Source: a virus (taxonomy: Duplodnaviria; Heunggongvirae; Uroviricota; Caudoviricetes). From it: DNA of 64,000 nucleotides. Position numbers and translations under genes: made by a program. The notes under the pieces were generated by a model, which saw nothing but the letters and a program-made list of their open reading frames with translations, did no database searches and was not told the origin of the DNA. Positions 1-58,384 of the stretch are shown piece after piece. The stretch lies in IMG/VR virus record IMGVR_UViG_3300017565_000001, positions 77,741-141,740 of that record; one strand, given 5' to 3'. How positions within the stretch are numbered: the first letter of the stretch is position 1; every line of letters starts with the position of its first letter.

Positions 1-177
1 ACCCTGCATGGCATCGTATGAGTGAACAATGGACCAATCGTTAACGAGTGATTCGCCCAACAGGAAAGTTTGAGTGTACGCCTTGACTGTATTCACCCTA
101 AACAACGAAAGTCGTGGCATACTGGAGAACCAGAAATTGGGTTGTCGATCATAATCTTGCATACCGTTATCGCTCAT
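1..177 (-). CDS. hypothetical protein, partial (N-terminal ~59 aa; gene continues beyond window start)
   Basis: ATG at 177-175 on the minus strand overlaps the TGA of the upstream gene (ATGA overlap). The reading frame stays open to position 1. Confidence 0.4.
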   Translation of the reverse strand, partial: MSDNGMQDYDRQPNFWFSSMPRLSLFRVNTVKAYTQTFLLGESLVNDWSIVHSYDAMQG

Positions 178-665
178 ACTATTGCCCTTGGTTCAACCCT
201 TACGTTCAGAATACGGAGGGCATTGTAAAAGTTGTCACAGCTGAGTCCATCATGCGCGAACACTTGCACGAAATGACCTCGTTGTTCATGTAGAAAGTCC
301 ACACGATCATCAAAAATCACGTATGGCACAATGAGTGGTGACAGATCATGGTCAGTGAAATATTGTCTGACTTCCATACCACGCCGCTCACCAGGCAAAT
401 ATGGGGTTGACCCCACGATATCAACCTGCAGGAAGTCAGCAAGCTGCGCCTCCATCCCTTCTTGATGGCGCCACGAAGTCGACAGAACAGTCTTTGCGCC
501 GGTTTCACGGACAAAGCGTCTGTAGAGCTTTACTGCAATGGGATCAAAATACGGCTCCCAGGTGGTGGGATCGTAATCCTTAGGAGCTTGTCCCAAGGCG
601 GCAACAGAGCGGCTGCTATTCAGCACACCGTCAATGTCAAGAAAGGAAAGTTTGAGATCATCCAT
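174..665 (-). CDS. HAD-superfamily phosphatase-like protein
   Basis: N-terminal LSFLDIDGVL matches HAD motif I (DxDGV/T). FDDR lies near the C-terminus. Size 163 aa. Confidence 0.5.
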   Translation of the reverse strand: MDDLKLSFLDIDGVLNSSRSVAALGQAPKDYDPTTWEPYFDPIAVKLYRRFVRETGAKTVLSTSWRHQEGMEAQLADFLQVDIVGSTPYLPGERRGMEVRQYFTDHDLSPLIVPYVIFDDRVDFLHEQRGHFVQVFAHDGLSCDNFYNALRILNVRVEPRAIV

Positions 666-725: not shown

Positions 726-2585
726 TTACAGACCGATCCACTGTTTGCGATCATCGGCCCGCTTGGGGTTGAAGATCAGATCCAAGGTCTTCTGCATGTT
801 ACCGTCATCAATAATTGGGAATAACTTGGGATTCGTCAAGCTATGCTGCCAGTCTTCCTTCGTCAAAGTGCCGAGACCCTTTGCTCGAGTGATTGACCAA
901 CCCTTATAGTCGTCGGGCTTGAAATCCAGATAGTCATCAGAATACCAATATTTCCGTTGCTTGCCCTTCTCAGCGATGATGAAAGGCGTCATGAAAATGT
1001 TGATGACAGGTGGCAACTTGGGATCAAACAGTTCAGGCCAATAAGTGTAGAAGAAATTGTTCAACAAAGCACCAATGTTCAGACCGTCTGGGTCCATGTC
1101 GTGTGCGATGTAAATCTGCGTATAACGCATCTGCGAACGATCAGCCTTCTGACCTGGTACAATACCAACCGAGTTCATGATGTCACGCAAAGCGCCATCA
1201 GCCAACACGTCCTTGATAGCCGCGCCGTGAACGTTCATGACCTTACCCTTCAGACCCAGACCACCGTGAATCTCTGGATTGCGAACGCTTGCCATACCCG
1301 AGATAGCTGACAGACCTTCAGCCAGGAACAGAATGCACTTGTCTCGCTTGGTGGCAGTGGCATCCATTAGACCAGGAACCTTCTCCCTGAGCATCTTCTT
1401 GGCATCCTTAGCTGCGTCGCTCATGTCCTTTTTCATGGTACGAGCTGCGCAACGTTCATAGATCTCGCTGATCCATTCGGGGAACTTCTTGATAATGTTC
1501 TTGAAGAAGTCGGGATCTTCCAATGCTGCCTTGATGATCTTTGCCGTCTCTTCGTTGTTCAGTCGAGTCTTGCTCTGACTGTTGAAGTTAGGCGCTTCCA
1601 TGCGAGTCACGTTGAACAACAGGAGCCCTTCCGAAATGTCGCTACGGTTCGGCGTCAGCTTACGCTTCTTGCTTTCACGTTCCAGAGCAGTGATCAAACC
1701 GCTGAAGAAGCCACGCTTGAATGCGTCCATGTGTACACCACCGTCGAATGCCGGAATGTTGTTCACCATGGAATGCTGATGTTCGCCAGACTCAAAGAAT
1801 CCAGGAACCAGCCAGAAGTCACTACGGAAAGTGCCTTCATGAATGTTGATCGTGATAGGCTTGAACCCAGGGAACAGGTTCTTTTCAACCGACTTGGCTT
1901 GAATGCGTTCACCCTGATAGTAGATCTTGATCTTGGGATTACACAAAGCCACTTCGTAAATGCGCGAACGCAGGAAGTCTTCAGGCAGAGTCAAGTCCTT
2001 AAACACCTTGGGACTCAGCTTGAACTCCACTCGAGTGCCATGCTTTGCGGTAGCCTTCTTCTTGAGAATGGCTGGAAGAGTAATCAAATCGTCCGCGCCC
2101 TCCTTGAACTCTTGCTTGAAGTATTGACCGTCACGTTCAACTTCCAAAACAAAATATTCGGAACAGAAGTTCACGACAGAAGCACCAATACCGTTCGTAC
2201 CAGCCACTTCACCACGTTCCTGGAAGTTACGGCCTGCGCGAGCATGACTCAATGCCAATGTGGCCATATAGGTTTGATGTTCTTCAGAATAGTCGATGGG
2301 AATACCACGACCATTGTCCTGAACACTGAACACCATAGTGTTGGGATCATAGGTGACATCGATACGATCACCGTGACCATGCCCGGCCACTTCATCAAGC
2401 GCGTTGTCTAGAATTTCACGGAATGCGGTAAACACTGCGGGAACCCACGTGACTTCCTGGGGTTCAGGTGTTCCATCGGGATAGCTCAAAACGGCTTGCG
2501 TATGGGGATCCCTTGACCCCAGATACATCTCAGTACGCAAACGTGCGTGTGAGTAGTCGTTGAGTTTGATAATCTTTTCAGACAT
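726..2585 (-). CDS. type II DNA topoisomerase large subunit (GyrB/T4 gp39-like; GHKL ATPase + TOPRIM)
   Basis: LDNALDE...VQDNGRGIP and GTNGIGASVVN are GHKL ATPase motifs. LAEGLSA is the TOPRIM EGDSA-type motif. 619 aa. Confidence 0.85.
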   Translation of the reverse strand: MSEKIIKLNDYSHARLRTEMYLGSRDPHTQAVLSYPDGTPEPQEVTWVPAVFTAFREILDNALDEVAGHGHGDRIDVTYDPNTMVFSVQDNGRGIPIDYSEEHQTYMATLALSHARAGRNFQERGEVAGTNGIGASVVNFCSEYFVLEVERDGQYFKQEFKEGADDLITLPAILKKKATAKHGTRVEFKLSPKVFKDLTLPEDFLRSRIYEVALCNPKIKIYYQGERIQAKSVEKNLFPGFKPITINIHEGTFRSDFWLVPGFFESGEHQHSMVNNIPAFDGGVHMDAFKRGFFSGLITALERESKKRKLTPNRSDISEGLLLFNVTRMEAPNFNSQSKTRLNNEETAKIIKAALEDPDFFKNIIKKFPEWISEIYERCAARTMKKDMSDAAKDAKKMLREKVPGLMDATATKRDKCILFLAEGLSAISGMASVRNPEIHGGLGLKGKVMNVHGAAIKDVLADGALRDIMNSVGIVPGQKADRSQMRYTQIYIAHDMDPDGLNIGALLNNFFYTYWPELFDPKLPPVINIFMTPFIIAEKGKQRKYWYSDDYLDFKPDDYKGWSITRAKGLGTLTKEDWQHSLTNPKLFPIIDDGNMQKTLDLIFNPKRADDRKQWIGL

Positions 2586-2940: not shown

Positions 2941-3459
2941 ATGCCTAACATTTACAACGTGAGCATTGCTCAAATTGCAGGCCCCGCGGAACAAGGTTTC
3001 ATTGACAACCTGAAGATTCAATATCGCTCCGATGAGCCGTATTCTCTGACTGTTGAGCAATGTGACGCCAACCGTCGTGGTGTTCTGCGTTGGACTCGCA
3101 TTATTGAGTCACTTTCGATGGCTGCTAATCCAACCATTACCAATGTGGAAGCACTGGATGCCACAGCTACCAGTCTAGCCACTGAATTTAATTTCACCGT
3201 TTCGTTTGTGTCTGATGAAGCGCTCACTATTGTTCGTGATGGTGAGACTCTTGAAACTGACGAAGCATTGAAGCAACTCATCGCCGAAGCCCTTGTTGGT
3301 GATGTAGTCAAGCACGTTACTGTCCAAGACCCAGAAATCGAGGGCGAAGACGGTACTATGTTGGCCGGCAAAGTTGAACGAATCCTGGATATGGAAGTCC
3401 TGGGTTTGGGTGACGATGTTGAGACCATCAAGGGCAGTATCACTATCACAATCGAGTGA
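2941..3459 (+). CDS. hypothetical protein
   Basis: 172 aa ORF with an RBS-like GGAGACCC upstream. Confidence 0.55.
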   Translation: MPNIYNVSIAQIAGPAEQGFIDNLKIQYRSDEPYSLTVEQCDANRRGVLRWTRIIESLSMAANPTITNVEALDATATSLATEFNFTVSFVSDEALTIVRDGETLETDEALKQLIAEALVGDVVKHVTVQDPEIEGEDGTMLAGKVERILDMEVLGLGDDVETIKGSITITIE

Positions 3460-3540
3460 TTGATATTCATACAAATTTTTATTGGCAAACTGATCCCAGC
3501 CAGTTTATTCTGGTTGGGAGATACAAGGTATAATTACAAA

Positions 3541-4821
3541 ATGAAACTACTATCTGGCATCATCGTACTACTCCTGGCACTAATAATTTCAGGCATCGCA
3601 GCATATTTCTCAGTTGTTGGTCTTGCGGCACTTTTCTCAGCTGCATTTATTCCCGTGGTAATCATGGGATCGGCCCTAGAAGCCGGCAAATTGGCCGGAG
3701 CGCAGTGGCTTAAATCCAATTGGTCCAATCCCTTGGTGGGGCGTTGGCTCAAGTCCTATCTGCTTTTCGCAGTCTTTGCACTCATGCTTATTACCAGTCT
3801 GGGTATCTACGGCTTCTTGAGTAAAGGTCACTTGGAGCAGGCAGCACCGACGGCAACTCTGGAACTCCAGATTGCGCAGAAGGAACAACAAATCCAAGTT
3901 CTTGAAGATCAAAACAAGCGAGCATACGAACGTATGAATCAGCTTGATGCTGGCTTTAATGCACTGATCAACAACAAGAATGCGACACGCGCCGCTATCA
4001 ACGAGCGGAACAAACAGAAGGCTGATCGTGATGCTCTTGAAAAGCAAATCACAGCCAATAACGATAAGATTCAATCTATCAATCAGGATATTCTGCCACT
4101 CAAGATGCAGACTAATGCGGTTGAAGCCAAGTTGGGCCCAGTCAAATACGTGGCAGACTTGTTTAATGCAACCGACACTGAAGCTGCTGTTCGCATCGTT
4201 ATTTTGATTCTGATGTTTGCGTTTGATCCCCTTGCTATTGTTTTGATGCTCTGCGCTAACATCACGATCTCTGAATGGCTGGCCCAACGTAGGATCAACA
4301 AGGCGGCGAAAGCCGTTCCCCAAGCTCCTCTAGCTCCAGAAGCTCCAGCCATTTCCCCAAAGAATGAAGAACCTATTTCTCAGCCTACCGCTGAAGAATC
4401 AACATTCTTGAATCAGGTGATGGATAATCCAACCATCCCCGACGAAGTAAAGAAGGAAGTTGCCCCGCTGGTTGGGGGCAACAAACCAGCAAAGAAGCCA
4501 AGGGTTTCTCGTAAAAAGAAAGCCACTGAGGATCTGAAGCAGTACATAACAGATGCTCACCCCACTCTGGATCATGCAAAGATCATGGAGAACAAGCAAA
4601 TGGTGGCAATTCTGGAGAAACGTCCCGATTTGTTGGATGACATAATTGAGGTGGTTAGGGAAGCCGACACCACAGCAAAACCAGCAGTAACAGTCCCAAA
4701 GGAAGAAATTCTAGAGGGAAATGACAACAACCAACCAGAAGTCATTCAAACCAATGTACCACAAGAGACTATTGACGGTTTGGCGAAAGGAAAAGCTTGG
4801 CTCAATCGTCCGTCAAAATAA
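3541..4821 (+). CDS. membrane-anchored coiled-coil protein with a Lys-rich C-terminal region
   Basis: MKLLSGIIVLLLALIISGIAAYF is an N-terminal TM helix. A second hydrophobic stretch follows, then a long heptad-like Q/E/K-rich segment. The ORF is open from 3460; ATG at 3541 is preferred (TATAAT upstream). Confidence 0.55.
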   Translation: MKLLSGIIVLLLALIISGIAAYFSVVGLAALFSAAFIPVVIMGSALEAGKLAGAQWLKSNWSNPLVGRWLKSYLLFAVFALMLITSLGIYGFLSKGHLEQAAPTATLELQIAQKEQQIQVLEDQNKRAYERMNQLDAGFNALINNKNATRAAINERNKQKADRDALEKQITANNDKIQSINQDILPLKMQTNAVEAKLGPVKYVADLFNATDTEAAVRIVILILMFAFDPLAIVLMLCANITISEWLAQRRINKAAKAVPQAPLAPEAPAISPKNEEPISQPTAEESTFLNQVMDNPTIPDEVKKEVAPLVGGNKPAKKPRVSRKKKATEDLKQYITDAHPTLDHAKIMENKQMVAILEKRPDLLDDIIEVVREADTTAKPAVTVPKEEILEGNDNNQPEVIQTNVPQETIDGLAKGKAWLNRPSK

Positions 4822-4855: not shown

Positions 4856-6109
4856 ATGTCAGAAGCGGATAAGAACCTGCATTGCTCCTTTTGTGCGAAG
4901 GACTCTCGCGAAGTCAAGAAGCTAATCCAAGGCCCAGGTGTTTATATTTGCGATGAATGTGTGGATTTGTGCCACTCGATTCTGAGCGATAGTATAGACG
5001 TATCAAAAGCCAAGGAAACAGCACCATCAGTTCAAGACGCTATCCCAAGCCCTAGTAAATTGAAGTCGTACCTTGACCAATATATCATTGGTCAAGACTA
5101 CGCGAAGATGGTTGTGAGTGTAGCTGTTCACAATCATTACAAGCGACTCGCTCATCCCGTTGTTGATGACGTTGAGCTGGAAAAGAGCAACATTTTGTTG
5201 TTCGGCCCTACAGGATCTGGTAAGACTCTGATTGCTCAATCCATTGCCAAGTATTTGGATGTTCCATTCGCAATGGCCGATGCCACTAGTTTGACTGAAG
5301 CAGGCTACGTGGGTGATGATGTCGAAAGCATTGTCACCAAACTCCTGCAAGCAGCTGGCGGTGACGTCCAGAAAGCAGAACGCGGCATCATCTATCTGGA
5401 TGAAATCGACAAGAAGCACAAGAAGGAAGGCGGAAGTAATTCCAAGGATGTTTCAGGGGAAGGCGTGCAACAAGCTCTTCTGAAGATCATTGAAGGTTCG
5501 GAAGTCATGGTTCCAACTGGTGGCAACAAAAAGAGCCCCCAGTCCGAGATGGTAAAGATCAACACCAAGAACATTTTGTTCATTGTCGGTGGCGCGTTTG
5601 TGGGTCTGGAGAAGGTAGTATCCAAGGCCATGCAAAACGGTCCCACGGTTGGTTTTGGTTCTACTGCTCGTGGTGAAAAGCCCGTAAACGAAGTTCTGCG
5701 TCACACACGTCCGGAACACCTGGTTGGTTTTGGTATTATTCCAGAATTGATTGGTCGTTTGCCCGTCCATGCTCCATTGGAAGAACTCTCTAGCGATCAA
5801 CTTGTTCGCGTGTTGACTGAACCCAAGAATGCCGTTATAAAGCAATTCGTCAAGATGTTTGAACTCTCCGGGGTTGAATTGTCCTTTGATGAAAAAGCGC
5901 TTCAGGAAGTAGCCAAGATTGCCAAAGAACGTAAAACTGGTGCTCGAGGTCTCCGTAGCGTTATCGAAAACAAGTTGGTGAAGACTCAATTTGACCTGCC
6001 TGAGTTGAAAGAACAAGGAGCAGTTAAGATTGTGATCGACGCTGACACCATCACAAGCGACAAAGAGCCACATGTCGTTTACTCTGAACAAACTGATGTG
6101 GCCAAATGA
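4856..6109 (+). CDS. clpX: ATP-dependent Clp protease ATP-binding subunit ClpX
   Basis: N-terminal C4 zinc finger (CSFCAK...CDECVDLC). Walker A LLFGPTGSGKTL. Also YVGDDVESI and IYLDEIDK. A VGF loop sits at the position of the ClpP-binding IGF loop. Confidence 0.9.
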   Translation: MSEADKNLHCSFCAKDSREVKKLIQGPGVYICDECVDLCHSILSDSIDVSKAKETAPSVQDAIPSPSKLKSYLDQYIIGQDYAKMVVSVAVHNHYKRLAHPVVDDVELEKSNILLFGPTGSGKTLIAQSIAKYLDVPFAMADATSLTEAGYVGDDVESIVTKLLQAAGGDVQKAERGIIYLDEIDKKHKKEGGSNSKDVSGEGVQQALLKIIEGSEVMVPTGGNKKSPQSEMVKINTKNILFIVGGAFVGLEKVVSKAMQNGPTVGFGSTARGEKPVNEVLRHTRPEHLVGFGIIPELIGRLPVHAPLEELSSDQLVRVLTEPKNAVIKQFVKMFELSGVELSFDEKALQEVAKIAKERKTGARGLRSVIENKLVKTQFDLPELKEQGAVKIVIDADTITSDKEPHVVYSEQTDVAK

Positions 6110-6121
6110 GGATTATTTTTC

Positions 6122-6658
6122 GTGTCAATTAAATTGGAAGTGAATGAGCGTATTCGTGCAACCCAGGTTCGTCTCATTGATGAGACTGGGGCACAGAAGG
6201 GCATTCGCAGTCTGCGCGAAGCTATTAACTACGCTCAATCACGTGATCTGGATCTCGTGAAGATTGCAGATGCCACTCCGCCAGTGTGCAAGGTCTTGGA
6301 TGCTGGCAAGTACCTATATGAACAGCAAAAGCAACAGAAGGCTCACGCCAAGAAACAACGAGCTGCTCAAGTTGAAACCAAGGAAGTTCAATTGCGTCCG
6401 GTAACGGACACGAATGATATGAAGATCAAAGCTCGCAAAGCCAGAGAGTTTCTGGCTGACGGCAATAAGGTCCGAGTAGTCATGCGCTTTCGTGGTCGAG
6501 AAGCTGCCCACAAGCAGATTGGTACGACATTGATGGAATCCTTTATGGCTGAGGTTGGGGACTCCAAGATCGAACAGGCACTCAAAGACAGTGGTCGTGA
6601 GTTGAGTTTGATCCTGGCACCTGCTCCGGCACCCAAGCCTGCACCCGTTGTAGAGTAA
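6122..6658 (+). CDS. infC: translation initiation factor IF-3 homologue
   Basis: Collinear with bacterial IF-3: VNERIRATQVRLID...GIRSLREAI...DLDLVKI...PPVCKVLDAGKYLYEQQK...KEVQLRPVTDTNDMKIKARKAREFLADGNKVRVVMRFRGREAAHKQIG...LSLILAP. Start codon is GTG. Ala/Pro-rich tail. Confidence 0.85.
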   Translation: MSIKLEVNERIRATQVRLIDETGAQKGIRSLREAINYAQSRDLDLVKIADATPPVCKVLDAGKYLYEQQKQQKAHAKKQRAAQVETKEVQLRPVTDTNDMKIKARKAREFLADGNKVRVVMRFRGREAAHKQIGTTLMESFMAEVGDSKIEQALKDSGRELSLILAPAPAPKPAPVVE

Positions 6659-6668
6659 CAACATGAAT

Positions 6669-6700
6669 GAAGGCGATACTTGACGTATCGCCTTCTTCTT
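6669..6700 (+). terminator. intrinsic terminator after the IF-3 gene
   Basis: Perfect 11-bp stem GAAGGCGATAC/GTATCGCCTTC with a 5-nt loop, followed by TTCTT. Confidence 0.65.
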
Positions 6701-6727
6701 GACTAAAAATTCAAATGAACGTAGACT
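6699..6727 (+). promoter_or_regulatory. sigma70-like promoter (TTGACT-N17-TAGACT) containing a TCAAATGAA box
   Basis: Member of the promoter family described in the findings. Sits upstream of the 6766 gene. Confidence 0.45.
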
Positions 6728-6765
6728 TGGTTTATCGTTAATCACAAACACAGGAGGGTCCGCAA

Positions 6766-9286: not shown

Positions 9287-9868
9287 ATGATCAAAATTTG
9301 CATTATTGGTAACGCTGGCTCTGGTAAGAGCACACTGGCTGGTAAGTTGTTCTCCGCACTTAAACCCAGTGGGGTTAACGTTGAACTGGTACCGGAATTC
9401 ATCCGCAATGACATCCAGATTAACGGTCCCATGCAAAGTGTGTGGGAACAGTACCGCACCCGCTTCAGCCAGAAGGAAATCGAAGATTCGCTCCCACCGT
9501 CAGTGGACTACGCAGTCATCGACTCAGGCACATTGACGCCATTCTTCTACACTTGTTTGTATTCCAACAAGGAAAACGAGCGTGAGCGTTTGGTTCTGCA
9601 GGACATGTATAAGTTCTTCCTGGACGACATTTACAAGCGCCGTTACGATTACGTATTTTTCCTGCCACGTGCGAAGACTTATGCAGCAAACCCCAACATT
9701 CTGACAGATGGAACCAGGTATCAGAGCGTTGACGAAATCGAAACCCTGGAAACGCATATGAATCTGTTCTTTGGCAATCTGCACAAGCTCAGCAATATTC
9801 ATGTGCTCAATTGTGAACTAGACGAACGTCTGGGAACTGTTTTGGAAATTATCGGCTATAAGGGCTAA
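9287..9868 (+). CDS. P-loop NTPase / nucleotide kinase-like protein
   Basis: Walker A IIGNAGSGKSTLAGKL at the N-terminus. 193 aa. Substrate unknown. Confidence 0.6.
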   Translation: MIKICIIGNAGSGKSTLAGKLFSALKPSGVNVELVPEFIRNDIQINGPMQSVWEQYRTRFSQKEIEDSLPPSVDYAVIDSGTLTPFFYTCLYSNKENERERLVLQDMYKFFLDDIYKRRYDYVFFLPRAKTYAANPNILTDGTRYQSVDEIETLETHMNLFFGNLHKLSNIHVLNCELDERLGTVLEIIGYKG

Positions 9869-9870: not shown

Positions 9871-10194
9871 ATGTCGTACCGTATGTTCATTGATGACGAC
9901 CGATTCCCTCCTGGGGATGAAAATGATTGGGCGATCTGCCGCAATCTGTTTGAAGTCCAACTGGTGATCGATCATGAGGGAATGCCATCATTCATCTCGT
10001 TCGACCACGACTTGGGCGCAAATCAACCGTCTGGTATGGACATCACTAAGTGGTTGGTTGAGTCTGAATTGGATGGAAAGCTTTCTTTTCCTGAGGATTT
10101 CGACTTTTACGTCCACAGCCAGAATCCCACTGGCGCTGGTAATATCGAGGGTCTACTTCGACAATATTTGCAACAACGCAAGATTGCACCTTGA
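9871..10194 (+). CDS. hypothetical protein
   Basis: 107 aa, acidic. Translationally coupled to the kinase gene. Confidence 0.45.
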   Translation: MSYRMFIDDDRFPPGDENDWAICRNLFEVQLVIDHEGMPSFISFDHDLGANQPSGMDITKWLVESELDGKLSFPEDFDFYVHSQNPTGAGNIEGLLRQYLQQRKIAP

Positions 10195-10251: not shown

Positions 10252-10548
10252 ATGACTGACACCACTCTCCAAAACCAGACCGTCACCAAGACCGCTACGA
10301 TCTCCTTGTGGAATCTGATCCTGCTGAATGACGATTTCACCCCGATCGACTTCGTGATGCAAGTGCTGATTGAACTCTGTGGCAAGACTGATCAAGAAGC
10401 ATACGCAATCACGATGGACATTCACAACACTGGGCGTGGCGTCGTTTCGACCTACACGGAAGAAATCGCCAAGCAAAAGGCCCACGACATCACGCTGATC
10501 GCCGCGCAGAACAAACATCCGCTCAAAGCGATCGCTGAAGAAGCATAA
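10252..10548 (+). CDS. clpS: ATP-dependent Clp protease adaptor ClpS
   Basis: LILLNDDFTPIDFVMQVL...HNTGRGVVSTYTEEIA...QNKHPL is collinear with the ClpS core (VILVNDDYTPMEFV...HYQGKAICGVFTAEVAE...ENEHPL). Confidence 0.85.
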   Translation: MTDTTLQNQTVTKTATISLWNLILLNDDFTPIDFVMQVLIELCGKTDQEAYAITMDIHNTGRGVVSTYTEEIAKQKAHDITLIAAQNKHPLKAIAEEA

Positions 10549-12205: not shown

Positions 12206-12429
12206 TGGAAGATACCATTCTATTCTTCAAAGCCGAGTATTTGGGTGAAGTTAGGGAATGGCTCGAGGCCATGGGGGTTAACCCCCATGACGCCCTAAGC
12301 AAATTCCCCAAGTTACGGATAGATGGAATTGAGATCTTGATCCTCCCAGATCCGGATCTACAGATGATGTTCAAGCTCGCATTCAGCCATGCCGTATCAA
12401 ACAAATCAATCAAGATAACAAAGATATGA
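12202..12429 (+). CDS. small protein of the FKL(R/A)F-motif family
   Basis: Contains DPDLQMMFKLAFSH near the C-terminus. Paralogous to the 12900 gene. Confidence 0.5.
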   Translation: MMEDTILFFKAEYLGEVREWLEAMGVNPHDALSKFPKLRIDGIEILILPDPDLQMMFKLAFSHAVSNKSIKITKI

Positions 12430-12495
12430 TTGACGTTTGCTACTAATTGACAACGGGCCACCAATAAGCCATACTGAATACACTAACAAGGAACT

Positions 12496-12903
12496 TTGAT
12501 GTATAACAACCCCGTCCCCGTAGCTGTGGGGATTGTGCCAGTTTATGGCGATGATCAAACCGAACGCTTTCTGTTTATTCGCCGAGCAGTGGCACCAATT
12601 GGTGGTGTGGCTTGTGTGAGTGGGTACGTTGATGAACACGAATCCGCAGAACAAGCAATGGCAAGGGAATTCAAGGAAGAGGTTGGTATCGAGACTCTTC
12701 CAGAAAATTGGGTTGTGTTTGCCACCCGCTGCTCGGCGCACAATCGTCTGTTGGTATTCATGAAGCTAGTCAACTACCTGGTTCATGAAGATGACCTGAA
12801 TAGCTTTGTGCCCAATACCGAGGTTTCGGAAGTTCTAGTGGGCGATCGCCATACTGAACTTGTGTTCCCTTTGCAATCGGAAATTCTCAGCAAGCTCCCG
12901 TGA
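12496..12903 (+). CDS. Nudix hydrolase
   Basis: Nudix box GYVDEHESAEQAMAREFKEEVGI (GX5EX7REUXEEXGU). Confidence 0.8.
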   Translation: MMYNNPVPVAVGIVPVYGDDQTERFLFIRRAVAPIGGVACVSGYVDEHESAEQAMAREFKEEVGIETLPENWVVFATRCSAHNRLLVFMKLVNYLVHEDDLNSFVPNTEVSEVLVGDRHTELVFPLQSEILSKLP

Positions 12904-14452: not shown

Positions 14453-15091
14453 TTGACTCTTGCACCAAACATAGGATACATTATGACGTATGACGTCAAA
14501 ACTGAGGCGGCGCTTGCGCAATTGCGGCCCATTCCGTATAGCTTCTCGTTTATCGAAATGCGAAAATACTTCGCTACGGTTCGAGTTGCTCAGGAACATC
14601 CGGCCGTATTCAAGCAGGGTATGCGCAACATTCATGGCTTCACTGATGAGCGACTTGATGCCGAGGTGAATAGTTCCTTCGATAAGAAGGTGTACTCGTT
14701 CATGTTGAACATCATGTTGGTCGAATATGAGCTGGACGAATTCAAAAATCTACAAGAATACGAGGCTTTGCCGTACTCCCTTTTGGGCCTCGCTCACTTG
14801 TACGCCTCAGGTACTGTTCGCCAAGATCAAGCAAAAGCTCTGTTTGATATGGTGATGGGAAGGCCGGGACTTAAGCTGGATGAAATTCTGATCCTAACCA
14901 ATTTTCTTCAGGAACAACCCATCGCCAACCTGGATGCCATCATCATGCAGGTCATCGCCAACAATCCCAAGCCCATCCAGGAATACAAATCTGGCAAGGA
15001 GAAGGCACTGGGTGCTGTCATGGGTCAAATCATGAAACAAGTTAAGGGTGACGCTTCTGCAATTCGTTCCCGTTTGTTGGAACTCATCTGA
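14453..15091 (+). CDS. GatB/YqeY-domain-containing protein
   Basis: C-terminal IQEYKSGKEKALGAVMGQIMKQVKGDASAIRSRLLEL matches the YqeY/GatB C-terminal domain (YKAGKEK...G.FVGQVMK.TKGKANP). Confidence 0.55.
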   Translation: MTLAPNIGYIMTYDVKTEAALAQLRPIPYSFSFIEMRKYFATVRVAQEHPAVFKQGMRNIHGFTDERLDAEVNSSFDKKVYSFMLNIMLVEYELDEFKNLQEYEALPYSLLGLAHLYASGTVRQDQAKALFDMVMGRPGLKLDEILILTNFLQEQPIANLDAIIMQVIANNPKPIQEYKSGKEKALGAVMGQIMKQVKGDASAIRSRLLELI

Positions 15092-17492: not shown

Positions 17493-18569
17493 ATGTCGGT
17501 AACTATTCCCGAAAAGGTGTACGTGGGGTTTCAGGGTCGGCGCGATCAAGACGAAGTACCACTGGGTTTCATGACGCCGTACACGGATGACGAGGCTGGC
17601 AAGAAACGCCAGTCAACTGTTGATCAATGGGCTGGCGGTCGCAACTACGGCAAAACCAAGACGTTCAACAGTGTCATCATCGACAACGAACCCATGTATG
17701 GATTCCGACTGGGACGTGCGATTCGTCGTTCGGGCCACTTTGGCTCCGGTGCCTCGTATGTTCGTATCGAAGACCCCAGGGGCTTTGAGCTGGAAATCAG
17801 CATCGAGAACTTGGTTGCTATTCTGGAAGACGTTGCGATGGAGCGCTGTGAATTCGTGGGCGCTCTTATTTGGGGCCGTGTTGCCGGCAGTCAAAAGAAC
17901 CTGCTTATGGCGGTTGACAGCGATCTGTATCGTGGCGCAGTCAAAACCAAGGCAGCAGTTGCCCAGGCCCTCCCATGCAAAGATTTCAGTATTGGCGACA
18001 AGATCGAAGCAGTGACTGGTGAAACCGGCATCTACATGGGTATGCTGTATGGCGTATCTGATGGTTGGAAAGAGCCCGAAACCATGTCTGGCAAGAAGCC
18101 GGTACTGAAAGTCACGTATGATGACAATTCCGTAGAATACGTGGGGTTCGTGGATCTCAAGGGTTCCATCTTGGAGAAGCATACTGGTAATGCGTTGACG
18201 GTTCAGGATTCCGAAAACGAAATCGCTGCCGCCCTAGCCGTCAATCAGTTCATATGCGATTACAAGGGAACAACAGACGTTATCGCCTGGTTCGCCAAGA
18301 AACCACACATTATTTCTACCCACAAGGCAGTGGGTGAAGATCAAATGCACGTTCTGTTTGACAACGACCCGAGTTCATATTCGTATTTCAAATGTCGAGT
18401 AGGTTATGGCACGGAATACACTATGAAGCGCGATGACAATCGAGTGATTACGATTCAAAAATCCTATCACTATAGCAGTCAGCCCACCCATATCAATATC
18501 GAATGGGACAAAGTTGAACTCGCCGGCCATAAGATCAGCAGCGCGACTAATTCCGTCGACTATTTCTAA
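17493..18569 (+). CDS. hypothetical protein, paralogue L1
   Basis: Shares VYVGFQGRR...PLGFMTPY...KRQ.TVDQWA...FNSV...PMYGF.LGRAIRRS...ASYVRIEDPRGFELEISIENLV with the 18578 and 24603 genes. Confidence 0.65.
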   Translation: MSVTIPEKVYVGFQGRRDQDEVPLGFMTPYTDDEAGKKRQSTVDQWAGGRNYGKTKTFNSVIIDNEPMYGFRLGRAIRRSGHFGSGASYVRIEDPRGFELEISIENLVAILEDVAMERCEFVGALIWGRVAGSQKNLLMAVDSDLYRGAVKTKAAVAQALPCKDFSIGDKIEAVTGETGIYMGMLYGVSDGWKEPETMSGKKPVLKVTYDDNSVEYVGFVDLKGSILEKHTGNALTVQDSENEIAAALAVNQFICDYKGTTDVIAWFAKKPHIISTHKAVGEDQMHVLFDNDPSSYSYFKCRVGYGTEYTMKRDDNRVITIQKSYHYSSQPTHINIEWDKVELAGHKISSATNSVDYF

Positions 18570-18577: not shown

Positions 18578-19912
18578 ATGAACGAACTTTCCACCATCAA
18601 GATCCCGCAAACCGTTTATGTGGGCTTCCAGGGTCGTCGTGCAGTCGATGAGGTTCCTCTGGGGTTCATGACGCCCTATGATGAGACCAAGGCAGGCCAG
18701 AAGCGCCAGCAGACGGTTGATCAGTGGGCGAAAGGTTGGGGGAGTAACAAGACCTTCAACAGCGTGACTCTGGAAAACGTTCCCATGATCGGCTTCAAGA
18801 TCGGCCGGGCAATTCGCCGCAGTCGTTCTTGGGGTGGAAATGCTTCCTACGTGCGCATCGAGGATCCGCGTGGTTTCGAACTGGAAATCAGTATCGAGAA
18901 CATGGTCATGGTGATGGATCAAAACATCGTCGAAGACGGTGAGATCATGCAAGAGTGCGTGTGGGGCCGTGATGGTGGCAAAAACATTCTGTTGCCAACC
19001 AACAGCGAACCCTATCAGGCTTCCCTGAACACCACCAAACGCCTCAATGCCGTTCTGTCTCTGAAGGACGTCAAGCCGGGCAGCAAGGTGAAACTGGTGA
19101 CTGGTGAAACCGGTATCTATTACGGTTCGCTCTATCCAATCTTCATCAAACATGAAGCCGAACATACGGATACTCGTTCTGGTTACCGCCACGAACGAAA
19201 TACTACAGAGGTGTACACCCCGGAAATTCGTGGGACGAAACGGTACATTCTGTATACGTCGAAGGGTAAGAAGGGAACCTTCAACGTTTACGCAAGTATC
19301 AAAGTGGCCGAAGTTTTGGAGGAAGCCAAGGAAAAGCTCAAGCCCCAAGATGTCGAGAAGCTGATTGCCACAAAGATTGCCGAAGGCAATAATAAGTTTG
19401 TCAATCATGTAAGCTCGACCAGTTACTACGATCGATTCGTGGGATTGGCGGCCGATCAGACGCTTGACTACGCGATCGTCCAGAAAGACATTGCAGAAGA
19501 TTACGCAAAGACGTTGAAGCACAATCGATATGGAACGACTTACGCCAGTCGTTCCATCTACATGGAGAGTGCTGATGGTCAAATCTATACGGCCAGCAAT
19601 GGTTACATGGATTTCACAACCAACTTCCTGCAGGCAAAGAATACTCCGCGTAAGTATGCGAATATCATGCTGTGTCCGAATCCTGGCAGTTATTGGTCCC
19701 GACATGATGCTGAGATTGAAGTTCAAGGCGGTTTCATCGGCATCAAGGCTGATCTGACAGAAGAAAAAGTTACCGAGTACAAATTCCATCAGCAACAATG
19801 GCATGTGACTGATGAAGAGTTGAAGCGTCTGTTCGTGCTTGACGTGGTGATCAAACTGAAGAGTGGTGAACAATATGTCTATGACTTCGGACGTCAAGAC
19901 ACCGACGACTGA
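18578..19912 (+). CDS. hypothetical protein, paralogue L2
   Basis: N-terminal ~110 aa are near-identical in pattern to L1. 444 aa. Confidence 0.65.
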   Translation: MNELSTIKIPQTVYVGFQGRRAVDEVPLGFMTPYDETKAGQKRQQTVDQWAKGWGSNKTFNSVTLENVPMIGFKIGRAIRRSRSWGGNASYVRIEDPRGFELEISIENMVMVMDQNIVEDGEIMQECVWGRDGGKNILLPTNSEPYQASLNTTKRLNAVLSLKDVKPGSKVKLVTGETGIYYGSLYPIFIKHEAEHTDTRSGYRHERNTTEVYTPEIRGTKRYILYTSKGKKGTFNVYASIKVAEVLEEAKEKLKPQDVEKLIATKIAEGNNKFVNHVSSTSYYDRFVGLAADQTLDYAIVQKDIAEDYAKTLKHNRYGTTYASRSIYMESADGQIYTASNGYMDFTTNFLQAKNTPRKYANIMLCPNPGSYWSRHDAEIEVQGGFIGIKADLTEEKVTEYKFHQQQWHVTDEELKRLFVLDVVIKLKSGEQYVYDFGRQDTDD

Positions 19913-22352: not shown

Positions 22353-23567
22353 TTACATGGTTTGATTTTGCATATATTGCAACAAAGCCTCACGTGACAC
22401 GTTGCAATCGTTGTAGAACCAGTATTCCCGCAGGCGCTTCAACGCCGCACCCAAGTCAGGACCAGGTTTCACACCCAACGCCTTTAAGTCATCACCACTG
22501 ACCGGAAACGTCGCTAATTGAAACTTACCGTCCAGGCCTCGCTTCAGCAAATTAACGGCGTAGTCAACATCAAAGTAAACTGCCGCGGCAAAAACCAACT
22601 CCAGCTTCCGCCCCATGACGAAATACTGATACAGGATTTCGGTCGCAGTGACAGCGTAGTCATATGAGACGATGTGCTTGACTACGTCGCGTTCAGCGGA
22701 ACGCCATTTCAATGCCTTGGCAGTTTGCTCAACATGTGCTTCATCGCGCATGAAAGGTGCGAGCAAAACAGCCGCCTGATTACCAAGCATGTGCCGAGCC
22801 ATACTGTCGTGCAACTTTTTGAACCATTCCATGGACGCGGAATCACCGTTAGGCAGAGCAGTATGCTCACTCAAACCCATCTCCATCATGAGGGGATAGA
22901 TCCAATAGCCGCTGAAATGTTCGAGGATCTTGGATGTTTCAGTCCAGATCCGTTCGACACTGATGCCACGCAATCCATGAACACAGTTGCGGATTTCTTG
23001 CTCGGGCAATATGGACTTCAGCTTTTCAGGATGCGGTTGCACTGGATGCATACGGCCCAAGAAACGAAAATAGCGCAAGATGCGCAGATAGTCTTCCGTC
23101 ATACGACCTTCTGCATCACCAACAAAGCGGACGATTCTGTTTTCCAGATCAGCTTGGCCGCCGAAAGGATCCAACAGATTGCCGTCGAAATCAAGCGACA
23201 TTGCATTGATGGTGAGGTCACGACGTGACAAGTCTTCAACCCAGTCACGAGTGTAGGTCATCTTAGCGTAACGGCCGTCGTGCTCGTCCTCAGTACGCAG
23301 ACTGGTGATCTCGTAGGATTCATCCTCCAGAACTACAGTCAGTGTGCCATGCTGCAAGCCCGTTTCCACATACTTGATGCCATGCTTCTGATACAATGCC
23401 AATTGCTCATCAGGGAAGGCGTCAGTGCAGAGGTCCACGTCATGGGGCGGCTCGTTGTTCAGATAATCTCGCACACACCCGCCAACCAAACGCAGGTCAA
23501 AGCCCTCCTGTACGAACAAGTCGCGCAGCGCACGCAAGGGAAGAGGTATCATTTGATTGAGGTGCAT
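22353..23567 (-). CDS. cca: tRNA nucleotidyltransferase (CCA-adding enzyme), class II
   Basis: GGCVRD head motif and RDLTINAM. 404 aa. Confidence 0.85.
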   Translation of the reverse strand: MHLNQMIPLPLRALRDLFVQEGFDLRLVGGCVRDYLNNEPPHDVDLCTDAFPDEQLALYQKHGIKYVETGLQHGTLTVVLEDESYEITSLRTEDEHDGRYAKMTYTRDWVEDLSRRDLTINAMSLDFDGNLLDPFGGQADLENRIVRFVGDAEGRMTEDYLRILRYFRFLGRMHPVQPHPEKLKSILPEQEIRNCVHGLRGISVERIWTETSKILEHFSGYWIYPLMMEMGLSEHTALPNGDSASMEWFKKLHDSMARHMLGNQAAVLLAPFMRDEAHVEQTAKALKWRSAERDVVKHIVSYDYAVTATEILYQYFVMGRKLELVFAAAVYFDVDYAVNLLKRGLDGKFQLATFPVSGDDLKALGVKPGPDLGAALKRLREYWFYNDCNVSREALLQYMQNQTM

Positions 23568-24602: not shown

Positions 24603-25796
24603 ATGTCAGTCAATCATAGTATTCAAATTCCCGATCAGATGTTTGTGGCTTTCGTTCGTAGCAATCAGGATGGCTACGTCCACAAAGGTTATACCATTCC
24701 CTATGGCACTGACTCAGCTTCCAAGAAGCGCCAACTCAACTTGCGGCATTCAACCCATGCCGATCGTGAAGGTGGGCTTGAGCCAGTAGTCTTGGAAAAT
24801 AAACCCATGTACGGGTTTAAGATTAGCCGCAAGCTTCGAGCAAACGGCTGGCGTTCTGATATTCAAACCGTTAGCATCGAAGATCCCAGAGGTTTCGAAT
24901 TTGAAGTTTCGGTTGCCAATCTGATCATGCTTACCGACAGCAATTTGATTCATAATGGCGAAATTATTCAGCAATGTGTATGGGCTCGCGATGGTGCAAT
25001 CAACATTTTGCTTCCAATCAATAGCCAACCATATCTGGATGCCGTTGTGAACACTGAGCGGGTATCCAAGCGAGTCAATACTCGATCGGTAAAACCAGGC
25101 AATAAGGTTCTCCTGCATGATGGCATTAAGGGTGTTTACATGGGTTCCATGTATACCATCATGCGTGATTACAACCGCAACTTGAGCATTTCACAAAAGA
25201 AGAAACACATCGTTCGTGTTGAAGGCGATAGTGGTACTTCGGTGGAATATCATGGTTACCCAACAATGAAAATTTCCGAGGTGTTGGATTCCACTCCCCA
25301 AACCAAAGAAGCATTGAGCCAACAGTTGGTGAATGACATCAAGGATAAGACGGTTACATTCCGGAAAGTCACGTCTGGCTATGGGCATGTGTCAACGCTC
25401 ACGTATGGTGACACCTTGATCTTTGCCAAGAAGGAACGGCGGTCGATTTCATACGATGAAGCTATGAAAGCCAAGAGCAACAGTTCGATTTTGGGCGTTT
25501 ATGATGACGAATGTTACCTGATCGAAGGCAACAGTATGGACCCCAATTATCGGTCTTATTACTACCGAAGCCTGGGAGTTGATGAAGTCCAGGCTGTGAA
25601 GATCAACGTATTTGCTTTGGATAAAGGCACGATTGAAATTGTTCAAGAGTACAATATCAACTCATCAAGTTATTACCGTAGTAGGGAACAGAAAACCTAT
25701 CAGATCAACAAGGATGAGATTGACTATTTTGTCTTAGAGTTGACGCTTAAGGATTCTGAGACCAACGTCAACTTCCACGTTAACGATTTGAAATAA
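24603..25796 (+). CDS. hypothetical protein, paralogue L3
   Basis: PMYGFKISRKLRANG...SIEDPRGFEFEVSVANLIMLT is collinear with L1 and L2. Confidence 0.65.
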   Translation: MSVNHSIQIPDQMFVAFVRSNQDGYVHKGYTIPYGTDSASKKRQLNLRHSTHADREGGLEPVVLENKPMYGFKISRKLRANGWRSDIQTVSIEDPRGFEFEVSVANLIMLTDSNLIHNGEIIQQCVWARDGAINILLPINSQPYLDAVVNTERVSKRVNTRSVKPGNKVLLHDGIKGVYMGSMYTIMRDYNRNLSISQKKKHIVRVEGDSGTSVEYHGYPTMKISEVLDSTPQTKEALSQQLVNDIKDKTVTFRKVTSGYGHVSTLTYGDTLIFAKKERRSISYDEAMKAKSNSSILGVYDDECYLIEGNSMDPNYRSYYYRSLGVDEVQAVKINVFALDKGTIEIVQEYNINSSSYYRSREQKTYQINKDEIDYFVLELTLKDSETNVNFHVNDLK

Positions 25797-37899: not shown

Positions 37900-37924
37900 A
37901 TAAACTCTAACCTGTAGGTGAAGT

Positions 37925-39211: not shown

Positions 39212-39263
39212 TTTGGTAGTGCCAGTTGTTTAGGCTGGCACACCTTAACTTCTACCTATAAAA

Positions 39264-39638
39264 ATGAAACGATCCGCAGTTATTCCGCTCCTGATGCTTG
39301 GCACTCTGTCACTCACCGCTTGTGGTGATGGTGGTGATAAGGTTGACACCAAACAAAACCGCTATTCGTCAGTTGAAGATTGCCGCCGTGATTGGGGTAA
39401 CGATTCGCGTGACTGTACTCCCAGAAGCGGGGGCGGCTATGTGGGCCCGCATTACTTTTGGAACCATTCAACCGGCACGCCCATGGCGGTTGGATCGGAT
39501 GGTTCGACTCGCGCACTCTCAAATTCGTATTTGACCCGCCCTGGTGCGGTGTCTGCTGCGACTGGTACCACTTCACAGAGCTCGATTGCTCGTGGTGGTT
39601 TTGGGTCTTCGGCCCGTGCTTCCTCTGTTGGTGGCTAA
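39264..39638 (+). CDS. DUF1190 (YgiB/YjfM-like) lipoprotein
   Basis: Lipobox LSLTAC. C-terminal IARGGFGSSARASSVGG matches the YgiB C-terminus TRGGFGES...SRSMGG. Confidence 0.6.
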   Translation: MKRSAVIPLLMLGTLSLTACGDGGDKVDTKQNRYSSVEDCRRDWGNDSRDCTPRSGGGYVGPHYFWNHSTGTPMAVGSDGSTRALSNSYLTRPGAVSAATGTTSQSSIARGGFGSSARASSVGG

Positions 39639-58034: not shown

Positions 58035-58372
58035 AATTCTTTATCGAACTATTCAAGAAGGTAAGGCATCGCATCGCTCCTCAATCATATGGCCACGTCG
58101 TCGTGATCGATCGTCGAACGCACGAACATCTTACCATGGGATGGCATCAAGCGTGCAATCCTAATGCTAAACTGCATTGGATGATTATGGCTGCCGATGT
58201 TCAAGAATTCATAGGAGCCAGAGGTGGACGGGTTCTCCCCAATAATTTGGAGGGCTTGAGTACCTTCTACGACTTCCCACCCAGTGAACACGAACAAGAC
58301 CAATATATGCTCCATCGAATTTCATTCCCTGATGAAGAATCTGTGGTGATGTTCAAATTGCGTTTCATGTAA
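58031..58372 (+). CDS. array member 2
   Basis: Ends SVVMFKLRFM. Confidence 0.55.
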   Translation: MKFFIELFKKVRHRIAPQSYGHVVVIDRRTHEHLTMGWHQACNPNAKLHWMIMAADVQEFIGARGGRVLPNNLEGLSTFYDFPPSEHEQDQYMLHRISFPDEESVVMFKLRFM

Positions 58373-58384
58373 GGAATCACATCA

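Follow-up and report, generated by a model that had tools for sequence, protein, structure and literature searches.

The window, a stretch of 64,000 nucleotides of viral DNA, carries an infC-like gene immediately downstream of clpX. The following features were recognised at and around the locus.

726..2585, minus strand: topoisomerase II large subunit gene, divergent (phrog_543, 569 bits).
2941..4821, plus strand: two co-oriented genes of 172 aa and about 430-453 aa, 5′ of clpX, with gaps of 0-34 nt.
4856..6109, plus strand: clpX, full-length ClpX unfoldase with zinc finger, 12-nt gap to the IF-3 gene (NF003745, 557 bits; TIGR00382, 537 bits).
6108..6112, plus strand: Shine-Dalgarno sequence GAGGA, read from the sequence, 9 nt 5′ of the IF-3 GTG and overlapping the clpX TGA stop codon (6107-6109).
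6122..6658, plus strand: infC-like gene for translation initiation factor IF-3, 178 aa, GTG start, TAA stop.
6140..6343, plus strand: IF-3 N-terminal domain, IF3_N (PF05198), aa 7-74, 94.1 bits against a cutoff of 26.9.
6302..6367, plus strand: Lys-rich inter-domain linker helix, aa 61-82, a helix in the AF2 model, with Ala61 at the position of Y70.
6371..6622, plus strand: IF-3 C-terminal 30S-binding domain, IF3_C (PF00707), aa 84-167, 94.7 bits against a cutoff of 34.8.
6623..6655, plus strand: Ala/Pro-rich C-terminal tail APAPKPAPVVE, 11 residues after the conserved LAP, predicted to be disordered (pLDDT of the last block 66).
6669..6695, plus strand: GC-rich 11-bp hairpin directly 3′ of the IF-3 stop codon, followed by TTCTTGACT (RNA fold -21.2 kcal/mol, z = -7.5).
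10252..10548, plus strand: clpS, Clp adaptor gene, 3.6 kb downstream of IF-3 (PF02617, 88.3 bits).

The open reading frame list agreed exactly with the sequence-only reading on the extent, strand and GTG start of the IF-3 gene. The frame is open only from position 6110, so the GTG is the earliest possible start, and neither ATT, ATA nor ATC occurs in frame between 6110 and the GTG. IF-3 is probably translated from this GTG behind a good Shine-Dalgarno sequence, whose overlap with the clpX stop codon suggests translational coupling to clpX. The open reading frames 6314..6751, 6388..6636 and 6079..6204 (opposite strand) overlap the strongly supported IF-3 frame and were rejected as shadow ORFs. 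An AUU-class start codon of infC is the basis of IF-3 autoregulation in E. coli and its relatives. At distant IMG/VR loci the automated start calls were noisy, being off by as many as 19 codons; only eight loci of the window lineage, checked by hand, were used for start codons. Seven of them, the window included, start with GTG and one with TTG, and an in-frame AUU was absent from all eight. AUG, GUG and UUG are the start codons favoured by IF-3 (PMC9723500).

IF-3 is probably the final gene of a transcription unit that contains clpX. The two genes at 2941..4821 found no match in Pfam and probably belong to the same unit; genes of similar size occupy the equivalent position in the compared loci L002, L004 and L005. 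The hairpin at 6669..6695 probably marks the end of the unit, with the promoter-like -35 of the next gene beyond it. Pattern scanning reported a promoter-like site at 6699-6727 and called the hairpin as a terminator on the minus strand only, because the T-run on the plus strand is weak. Hairpins were also found at the same position after IF-3 in L005 and in phage Atu_ph07. No known RNA element reached the Rfam gathering threshold anywhere in the window and none had E ≤ 1 within 2500-7500; an infC/L20-type leader was thus not found by Rfam in the window.

By its domains and predicted fold, the product of 6122..6658 is to be regarded as a genuine full-length two-domain IF-3 homologue. Its proposed collinearity with bacterial IF-3 across both domains was borne out by Pfam, TIGR00168 and PDB matches far beyond chance. 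The NCBIfam equivalog model TIGR00168 (infC) scored 179.3 bits against a cutoff of 60 and was covered from position 5 to 168 of 170, and the top match among the sequences of solved structures was the IF-3 chain 5me0_Y (E = 1.3e-38). The AF2 model had a pLDDT of 89. Its top Foldseek matches were all IF-3, including 30S-bound forms (TM 0.71-0.82), and it also matched the single domains 1tif (N-domain, TMt 0.86) and 1tig (C-domain, TMt 0.87). Bacterial InfC (E. coli P0A707; structures 5me0, 5lmn and 9a5a; G. stearothermophilus, T. thermophilus and B. subtilis) has the same domain order, and the likeness extends to the fold and to the equivalog-level HMM score. The two differ in that identity does not exceed 48-52%, the linker of the window protein is two residues longer, its tail has 11 residues against a median of 2, and the window has neither the bacterial thrS-infC-rpmI-rplT operon nor the AUU-type start of E. 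coli infC.

Of 16 E. coli IF-3 positions checked, 12 are conserved in the phage protein: R25, Y75, R99, D106, K110, R112, R129, R131, R133 and R168, which are common to bacterial InfC and the window protein, together with Q33 and R66, the latter replaced by K and counted as conservative. In window numbering, the conserved C-domain residues are R92, D99, K103, R105, R122, R124, R126 and R159. The four altered positions are Y70 (to A), Y107 (M100), R116 (E109) and R147 (S140). From older mutagenesis work, we take the C-domain arginines, Y75, D106, Y107 and K110 to be functionally important in E. coli IF-3; Y107, R116 and R147 presumably matter there for 30S binding and function. The four substitutions mean that 30S affinity or activity could differ from that of bacterial IF-3. 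Just two of these changes mark the phage clade: position 147 is no longer basic, and Y70 is Ala, the latter in 36 of 40 members of the window clade and in none of 80 bacterial loci. The other two are also seen in bacteria, where 107 may be aliphatic and 116 non-basic; the Y107 change was rejected as a phage signature, with L, I, V or M there in 22 of 80 bacterial loci. In the N-domain, R17, Q25 and K57 correspond to E. coli R25, Q33 and R66, the residues that contact the elbow of the initiator tRNA (PMC9723500).

The linker is rich in Lys and Gln and counts 23 residues between the equivalents of Y75 and E95, against 21 in bacteria. Every one of 55 phage-associated sequences and 47 Clp-linked IMG/VR loci had the longer form; the 21-residue form was seen at all 80 bacterial genome loci and in 67 of the 70 bacterial-like hits. 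The Ala/Pro-rich C-terminal extension described by the sequence-only reading is real, but it is short, with 11 residues only; tails have a median length of about 8-9 residues in the phage clade, as against 2 in bacterial-like IF-3s. Its status as a distinct domain was rejected in view of this length, the low model confidence and the longer A/P-rich tails, of 24-105 residues, in some bacterial IF-3s. Pairwise comparison of phage copies gave dN/dS values of 0.055 (dS 0.69) and 0.081 (dS 0.63), and the phage IF-3 is under strong purifying selection (dN/dS ~0.06).

The gene order topoisomerase II, ClpX, IF-3 and then ClpS is shared with two isolated jumbo phages, Atu_ph07 (490 kb) and Phosso (469 kb); synteny extends to metagenomic contigs of 481-524 kb. 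A ~99-100% identical protein (P0001) is encoded on a contig of 424,529 bp. This synteny and contig size confirm the earlier description of the gene as phage-encoded. The 64 kb window yielded no capsid, tail or terminase gene, and several IF-3-bearing 'phage' records resemble bacterial contamination, with rpmI-rplT alongside IF-3 (5 of 80 IMG/VR loci); these observations would fit a bacterial or plasmid origin of the window, with IF-3 as the host's own infC. We regard that origin as extremely unlikely, since the gene order is that of plaque-isolated phages, the relatives lie on contigs of 424-524 kb, and the window holds a T4-type topoisomerase II, PHROG-only families and many ORFans. Moreover, L35/L20 genes (rpmI/rplT) and thrS are absent near the window IF-3, whose neighbours are clpX and a small membrane-protein ORF, and the best IF-3 from a bacterial genome, among 185,579 reference species, is only 48% identical. 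We put at about 0.7 the probability that the gene belongs to a huge phage (~420 kb) related to Atu_ph07 and Phosso and would encode a working IF-3.

The closest known systems are Atu_ph07 gp1 (AUZ94813.1, 'translation initiation factor 3') and Phosso gene 521 (XYS97678.1), borne by jumbo phages of 469-490 kb of Agrobacterium and Sinorhizobium, respectively. In both, a divergent topoisomerase II gene, small genes, ClpX and IF-3 follow in the same order as in the window, and IF-3 has a GTG start with a Shine-Dalgarno sequence, the 23-residue linker and a hairpin terminator 3′ of the gene. Protein identity to the window IF-3 is, however, only 41-43%, the Y70 position is Tyr in these phages but Ala in the window clade, the gap between clpX and IF-3 is 59-65 nt as against 12 nt, and the window IF-3 sits in a separate metagenomic clade. 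ClpX, with the Pfam domains zf-C4_ClpX and AAA_2, adjoins IF-3 in Atu_ph07, Phosso, L002-L007 and 33 IMG/VR loci; the topoisomerase II position is kept in Atu_ph07, Phosso and L002-L007 and is thus a conserved landmark of the neighbourhood. ClpS lies downstream of IF-3 in L002, L004, L006 and many IMG/VR loci.

More distant are the Rak2-like/Asteriusvirus phages (121Q gp47, GAP32, CBB and Sharanji) and Xanthomonas phage XaC1. These encode a two-domain IF-3 that shares the insertion of two linker residues, with topoisomerase II in the vicinity and both ClpS and a DnaJ-like gene alongside. They differ from the window in an ATG start, in an identity of 34-41%, and in that ClpS, not ClpX, is the immediate neighbour, directly adjoining IF-3 in 121Q and XaC1. 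Their C-terminal domain is far more diverged, with RFRGRE replaced by KTSGRG or KVIGRV and the equivalents of R99 and R131 lost. IF-3 has also been described with IF1, S21, tRNA and other genes in phage genomes above 200 kb, and these genes were read as redirecting host translation (PMC7162821, PMC11748809); tblastn matches in the LR7565xx records of the huge phages of Al-Shayeb et al. 2020 are 32-39% identical to the window IF-3.

IF-3 was found in 101 of 50,697 GenBank phage records and on at least 108 IMG/VR contigs; the IMG/VR loci were detected by a profile-based scan, a scan with the single protein having returned no relatives. The gene had been called rare among phages, which is true across all phages, but it recurs often in jumbo and huge phages. 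Phage IF-3 genes have appeared in genome papers for more than 10 years and are discussed in PMC7162821, PMC7824862, PMC11895373 and PMC11748809; the roles offered in the literature are speculation. Because many jumbo phages are annotated with IF-3 and the ClpX-IF-3 pair is already present in Atu_ph07, phage IF-3 is already known and its novelty had been overstated.

What the present analysis delimits is a Clp-linked jumbo-phage IF-3 family of the Atu_ph07 gp1 / 121Q gp47 type. As judged from the sequences compared, a phage-specific family is distinguished by the 2-residue-longer linker, by linkage to clpX/clpS instead of rpmI-rplT, and by a start other than AUU. A Clp gene (ClpX or ClpS) lies within 3 kb of IF-3 at 47 of 80 viral and none of 80 bacterial loci, and L35/L20 genes lie within the same distance at 5 of 80 viral and 55 of 80 bacterial loci. 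The Clp linkage holds down to ~37% IF-3 identity. All Clp-linked loci share the 23-residue linker, which points to one lineage; eight IMG/VR loci have this linker and no Clp gene within 3 kb. Some huge-phage IF-3s in IMG/VR have a 21-residue linker and no Clp neighbour, suggesting separate acquisitions. In the neighbour-joining tree the window falls in a 40-member metagenomic clade with 84% bootstrap, and monophyly of all phage IF-3s was weakly supported (8-47%); the linker indel is a better family marker than the tree. The window fits the Clp-linked family by its genome of more than 200 kb, its 23-residue linker, the clpX gene 12 nt upstream and the clpS gene nearby. The interest of the family lies in its being a separate phage lineage of IF-3 in which a setting of Clp chaperone genes has replaced that of rpmI-rplT and AUU autoregulation. 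The window protein, with most contact residues kept and strong purifying selection, is well preserved and seems a good candidate for experiments.

From these sequence comparisons, the protein most likely serves to provide host ribosomes with IF-3 activity while a long infection lasts. The phage protein would bind the host 30S subunit as IF-3 does and keep the subunits dissociated, speed formation of the 30S initiation complex, and proofread the start codon and initiator tRNA. It might thereby supplement or replace host IF-3 in a long infection, after host expression is shut off. Without an AUU start, the phage copy would escape IF-3 feedback and could raise the ratio of IF-3 to 30S. The company of ClpX, ClpS, HSP20 or DnaJ suggests that IF-3 may be expressed within a phage module for the maintenance of translation and protein quality. 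The Clp linkage itself may be the inherited gene order of one old phage lineage, free of functional coupling.

A direct coupling of the two functions, in which a component of host translation is cleared or remodelled by phage ClpX/ClpS, with the phage IF-3 then taking over, would make sense of several features: at most of the family's loci ClpX ends 10-130 nt 5′ of IF-3, and ClpS is close by; a Clp gene within 3 kb separates viral from bacterial loci at the frequencies given above, and the linkage is retained to ~37% IF-3 identity; the order IF-3, ClpS and DnaJ-like gene recurs in the distant phages 121Q and XaC1; and in the window the IF-3 Shine-Dalgarno sequence overlaps the clpX stop. Host IF-3, hibernation factors and products of stalled ribosomes would be possible targets, and IF-3 and Clp would then form one 'translation and proteostasis takeover' module. 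We consider this coupling unlikely, since gene order can be inherited irrespective of function and the Clp-linked loci are one lineage by their linker, eight loci with that linker have no Clp gene within 3 kb, and the authors of the Atu_ph07 genome link ClpX to DNA replication or topoisomerase. We think it quite improbable that the coupling goes further, to an ancient jumbo-phage module in which a long-linker IF-3 and ClpX/ClpS (with HSP20/DnaJ) would put initiation in the infected cell under phage control. In such a module the unfoldase system would remove or remodel host components, possibly host IF-3 or ribosome-hibernation factors, and a re-tuned IF-3, with Y70 changed to Ala, an altered C-domain basic patch, a longer linker and no autoregulatory start, would seize the 30S subunit. 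Were the Clp link functional, it would be a new viral route to takeover of translation initiation; were it not, phage IF-3 would be an ordinary auxiliary copy of the host factor.

The substitutions also bear on two readings in which the phage IF-3 is other than a standard factor. An impaired protein could act as a dominant-negative decoy, occupying the IF-3 site of the 30S subunit and throttling host translation, as the changes at Y107, R116 and R147 might suggest if their roles in older mutagenesis work apply here. This is very unlikely: the phage's own translation would be blocked too, selection at a dN/dS of ~0.06 has kept the tRNA-contact residues and the catalytic-site equivalents, and several of the altered positions vary in bacteria with a functional IF-3. 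Conversely, an IF-3 of altered specificity might favour phage over host mRNAs through their 5′ leaders or start codons. The Ala at Y70 in 36 of 40 clade members and 0 of 80 bacterial loci, the non-basic residue at 147 and the longer linker would be in keeping with this selective reprogramming, as would the proposal that phage translation genes 'intercept and redirect' host translation (PMC7162821, Al-Shayeb et al.). We give it little credence, because the residues for codon and tRNA proofreading are kept, which argues for standard IF-3 specificity, and because 107 upstream regions in the window show no shared leader or unusual initiation signal. It also runs against the established picture of IF-3, which is not known to read mRNA leaders directly. 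The sequence-only reading had proposed that initiation could be biased toward phage mRNAs, many of them with a conserved leader, and that proposal found no support, no leader common to many genes being found by direct-repeat search, k-mer enrichment in the 107 upstream regions or motif scan. A conserved leader was rejected as a feature relevant to IF-3, what was seen being a promoter-like motif at few genes and paralogue-derived similarity. The sole recurrent upstream element, TTGAC..AAATGAAG..TATAAT, is this promoter-like motif and precedes about 3-5 genes. Shine-Dalgarno motifs of the ordinary kind are frequent in the window, and crude gene calls put start codon use at 73% ATG, 12% GTG and 15% TTG.

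Profile and structural comparisons identified the 178 aa product of the ORF at 6122..6658 (+) as IF-3, in agreement with the sequence-only reading, which had described a two-domain homologue starting on GTG. Pfam placed IF3_N at aa 7-74 (94.1 bits) and IF3_C at aa 84-167 (94.7 bits), the NCBIfam infC equivalog TIGR00168 scored 179.3 bits against a cutoff of 60, and solved IF-3 chains aligned end to end with the protein (best 5me0_Y, E = 1.3e-38). AlphaFold2, given an alignment of 33 sequences, produced a model with a mean pLDDT of 89 in which a long linker helix (aa 61-82) separates the N-terminal alpha/beta domain from the C-terminal one and the tail has low confidence. All top Foldseek matches in the PDB were IF-3, with TM values of 0.82 for B. 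subtilis IF-3 and 0.71-0.79 for 30S-bound IF-3. The IF-3 frame opens only at 6110, four codons before the GTG, which is therefore the first possible start; the Shine-Dalgarno sequence GAGGA (6108-6112) lies 9 nt before it, overlapping the upstream gene's TGA stop codon.

When the protein was mapped onto E. coli numbering, Y75, R99, D106, K110, R112, R129, R131, R133 and R168 were found to be conserved, residues that are important for 30S binding and fidelity according to older mutagenesis. The N-terminal domain also keeps the initiator-tRNA-elbow contacts R25 (R17 in the window protein), Q33 (Q25) and R66 (K57), whose roles in E. coli IF-3 have been described (PMC9723500). Four positions differ from E. 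coli: Y70 (Ala61), Y107 (Met100), R116 (Glu109) and R147 (Ser140). Ala at position 70 is a signature of the window's clade of metagenomic IF-3s (36/40 members versus 0/80 bacterial loci), and a non-basic residue at 147 is likewise typical of this clade; the changes at the other two sites, to aliphatic at 107 and to non-basic at 116, are seen in bacteria as well. Purifying selection on phage IF-3 copies is strong, with dN/dS of 0.055 (dS 0.69) and 0.081 (dS 0.63) between copies. The Ala/Pro-rich C-terminal extension is present but short and minor: it runs 11 residues beyond the conserved LAP, the median tail being about 8-9 residues in the phage clade and 2 in bacterial-like IF-3s, and A/P-rich tails of 24-105 residues occur in some IF-3s of bacteria.

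No capsid, tail or terminase gene was found within the 64 kb window, and the viral case therefore depends on comparison with other genomes. P0001, a database protein encoded on a 424,529 bp JGI contig, is identical to the window IF-3 except for the writing of the first codon. Agrobacterium phage Atu_ph07 (490 kb) and Sinorhizobium phage Phosso (469 kb), both plaque-isolated jumbo phages, have the same local gene order, as do metagenomic contigs of 481, 485 and 524 kb: the topoisomerase II large subunit on the opposite strand, two unknown genes, then ClpX and IF-3, with AAA_28, cREC_REC and ClpS further on. In the window, the topoisomerase is of T4 type and the tRNA nucleotidyltransferase of phage type; glutathionylspermidine synthase and three paralogues from PHROG-only families are also encoded, and many ORFs have no Pfam match. 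Among 185,579 bacterial and archaeal species (one genome each), the best IF-3 was only 48% identical and the top matches were scattered across many phyla. Because of this low identity, the synteny and the phage-type genes, the sequence evidence indicates that the IF-3 is no recent host capture and that the window is not bacterial; that it is bacterial DNA after all is extremely improbable, as jumbo-phage gene order, PHROG-only families and the distant prokaryotic IF-3 all oppose it.

Phage-encoded IF-3 is already known and is not new. By tblastn, IF-3 was found in 101 of 50,697 GenBank phage records, mainly Rak2-like and Asteriusvirus phages (121Q, GAP32, CBB, Sharanji), XaC1, Atu_ph07, Phosso and the Al-Shayeb huge phages, many of them already annotated as such, and an IMG/VR profile scan gave 108 viral contigs with IF-3, many of 200-619 kb. 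Phage IF-3 was named explicitly by Al-Shayeb et al. 2020 (PMC7162821), the Atu_ph07 protein was cited by Iyer et al. 2021 (PMC7824862), and the gene is mentioned in the Sharanji paper (PMC11895373) and a soil huge-phage study (PMC11748809); all four speculate on host takeover or support of phage translation, without experiments. Five 'viral' IMG/VR contigs (L033, L036, L037, L054 and L056) carry an IF-3 with a 21-residue linker, followed by rpmI-rplT; they were probably misclassified as viral and represent host DNA or the flanks of prophages. Several short Listeria, Enterococcus and Staphylococcus 'phage' records in GenBank with IF-3 matches may be similar contamination.

Phage IF-3 genes are set apart from bacterial infC by linker, gene context and start codon. 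The linker was measured between the Y75 and E95 equivalents.

Linker length and gene context of IF-3
Linker of 23 residues: 55/55 phage-associated sequences (the window's 40-member clade, the Atu_ph07/Phosso group, 121Q, XaC1)
Linker of 23 residues: 47/47 Clp-linked IMG/VR loci
Linker of 21 residues: 67/70 bacterial-like database matches
Linker of 21 residues: 80/80 bacterial genome loci
ClpX and/or ClpS within 3 kb of IF-3: 47/80 viral versus 0/80 bacterial loci
rpmI/rplT within 3 kb of IF-3: 5/80 viral (probably host DNA) versus 55/80 bacterial loci

A neighbour-joining (NJ) tree supported the window's clade at 84% and the deeper phage grouping at only 8-47%; the linker insertion, being rare, is better support for common ancestry than this tree. 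ClpX usually ends just 5' of IF-3, whereas the distant phages 121Q and XaC1 have ClpS and a DnaJ-like gene directly 3' of it; the window has the full set, with clpX at 4856..6109 and clpS at 10252..10548. A literature search found no published mention of the IF-3-Clp linkage, and in the Atu_ph07 paper IF-3 is absent from the text and ClpX is tied to the nearby topoisomerases. Seven loci start on GTG (the window, Atu_ph07, Phosso and the metagenomic relatives L002, L004, L005 and L007) and one, L006, on TTG, the data being confined to named loci as automated calls in more distant ones were too noisy; all eight have a Shine-Dalgarno sequence and none an in-frame AUU-class codon, the autoregulatory feature of infC in E. 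coli and relatives. In 121Q and XaC1, IF-3 starts with ATG.

In the window, IF-3 is the last of four same-direction genes (2941 to 6658, gaps 0-34 nt), divergent from the topoisomerase gene, and is probably expressed together with clpX in one transcription unit; the 12 nt gap between the two points to coupled translation. An 11-bp hairpin at 6669-6695, 3' of the IF-3 stop (-21.2 kcal/mol, z = -7.5), is followed by the -35-like hexamer TTGACT, and L005 and Atu_ph07 have similar hairpins 3' of IF-3. The + strand T-tract after it is weak, and the intrinsic terminator is therefore only putative. The gene at 3460..4821 (+; alternative start 3541) encodes a 453 aa protein without a Pfam match; it has hydrophobic segments at the N-terminus, and its long middle part is coiled-coil-like. 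In L002, L004 and L005, too, the position immediately 5' of clpX is taken by a gene of comparable length (418-463 aa). The window gene may belong to one conserved unit with clpX and IF-3.

Judged from sequence, the phage-lineage gene is intact and under selection. We consider it likely (probability about 0.7) that its product binds the host 30S and functions as a normal IF-3, sustaining initiation during a long infection. It would bind host 30S subunits and perform anti-association, faster initiation-complex formation and proofreading, so that a huge phage could keep or raise initiation capacity through a long infection once host expression is shut down. Nor would the copy be repressed by IF-3 itself, as its GTG belongs to the canonical start codons (PMC9723500) and it lacks the AUU feedback device.

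Selective reprogramming of initiation toward phage mRNAs is unlikely, as the leader said to be common to many genes was not borne out: in the 60 nt upstream regions of 107 crudely called genes the commonest 8-mer occurred in only 5 regions, and an Rfam search of the window found no RNA element. This 8-mer came from a promoter-like element, TTGAC-N4-AAATGAAG-N-TATAAT, each copy being followed by a GTGGCATC hairpin arm; elsewhere a terminator hairpin is followed directly by TTTGACTT.

43139-43167, +, promoter-like element
43548-43576, +, promoter-like element
53183-53211, +, promoter-like element
14045, hairpin and TTGACT element
30043, hairpin and TTGACT element
52214, hairpin and TTGACT element

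Both kinds of element are probably cassettes of phage promoters and terminators and may be what had been taken for a leader; the remaining upstream repeats derive from paralogous genes. Start codon usage (78 ATG, 13 GTG, 16 TTG) and Shine-Dalgarno motifs were ordinary. A real functional coupling of IF-3 with the Clp system is favoured by the context counts (47/80 viral versus 0/80 bacterial), but these are confounded by shared ancestry, and we regard it as improbable; that the protein is a decoy or inhibitor is very unlikely. The window locus is a well-preserved example of phage IF-3, and the linker insertion, the Clp linkage and the lost bacterial regulatory context make the role of phage IF-3 more testable.

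Scattered RNA-repair and tRNA-maintenance genes suggest a phage toolkit against host tRNA or RNA cleavage.

174..665, -, HAD_SAK_2 ('Swiss Army Knife' RNA repair HAD domain)
9287..9868, +, AAA_28 ATPase, adjoining cREC_REC
9871..10194, +, cREC_REC, cyclic-phosphate-processing receiver domain
12499..12903, +, NUDIX
22353..23567, -, tRNA nucleotidyltransferase (CCA-adding)
32723..33754, +, RNA ligase

A 212 aa protein (14453..15091, +) has a GatB/YqeY domain (PF02637, 67 bits), which adds another translation-associated (tRNA-binding-type) domain to the window that holds IF-3. In L007 (78.6 kb contig), ribosomal protein S21, a further initiation-related protein known from huge phages, is encoded at 12223..12483, about 4 kb 3' of the ClpX-IF-3 pair. 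A possible polyamine cluster at 36550..40759 (+) encodes a Na+/H+ exchanger family membrane protein, a saccharopine-dehydrogenase-like enzyme and glutathionylspermidine synthase; the last lies near IF-3 in Phosso, and AdoMet decarboxylase lies near clpX in the window's relatives. Other genes were as follows.

17493..18569, 18578..19912 and 24603..25796, +, paralogues of unassigned function (phrog_6266, 2475, 30990)
28965..29657, +, cell-wall hydrolase
31565..32446, +, SPFH/Band 7 protein
34015..35365, -, two adjacent ConA-like lectin (Laminin_G_3) proteins
61642..63911, +, NAD-dependent sugar epimerase/dehydratase adjoining UDP-glucose/GDP-mannose dehydrogenase

The three paralogues, two of which form a tandem pair, are similar at the DNA level, and this similarity takes in a conserved junction upstream (...GTCGAGGTAAnCATG). 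A run of small genes of about 75-140 aa at 57744..60900 (+), with ATTCAAGCTGAGGTTCATGTGA repeated at their junctions (58008, 58712, 59328 and 60372), looks like a tandem small-paralogue family with overlapping stop/start signals.
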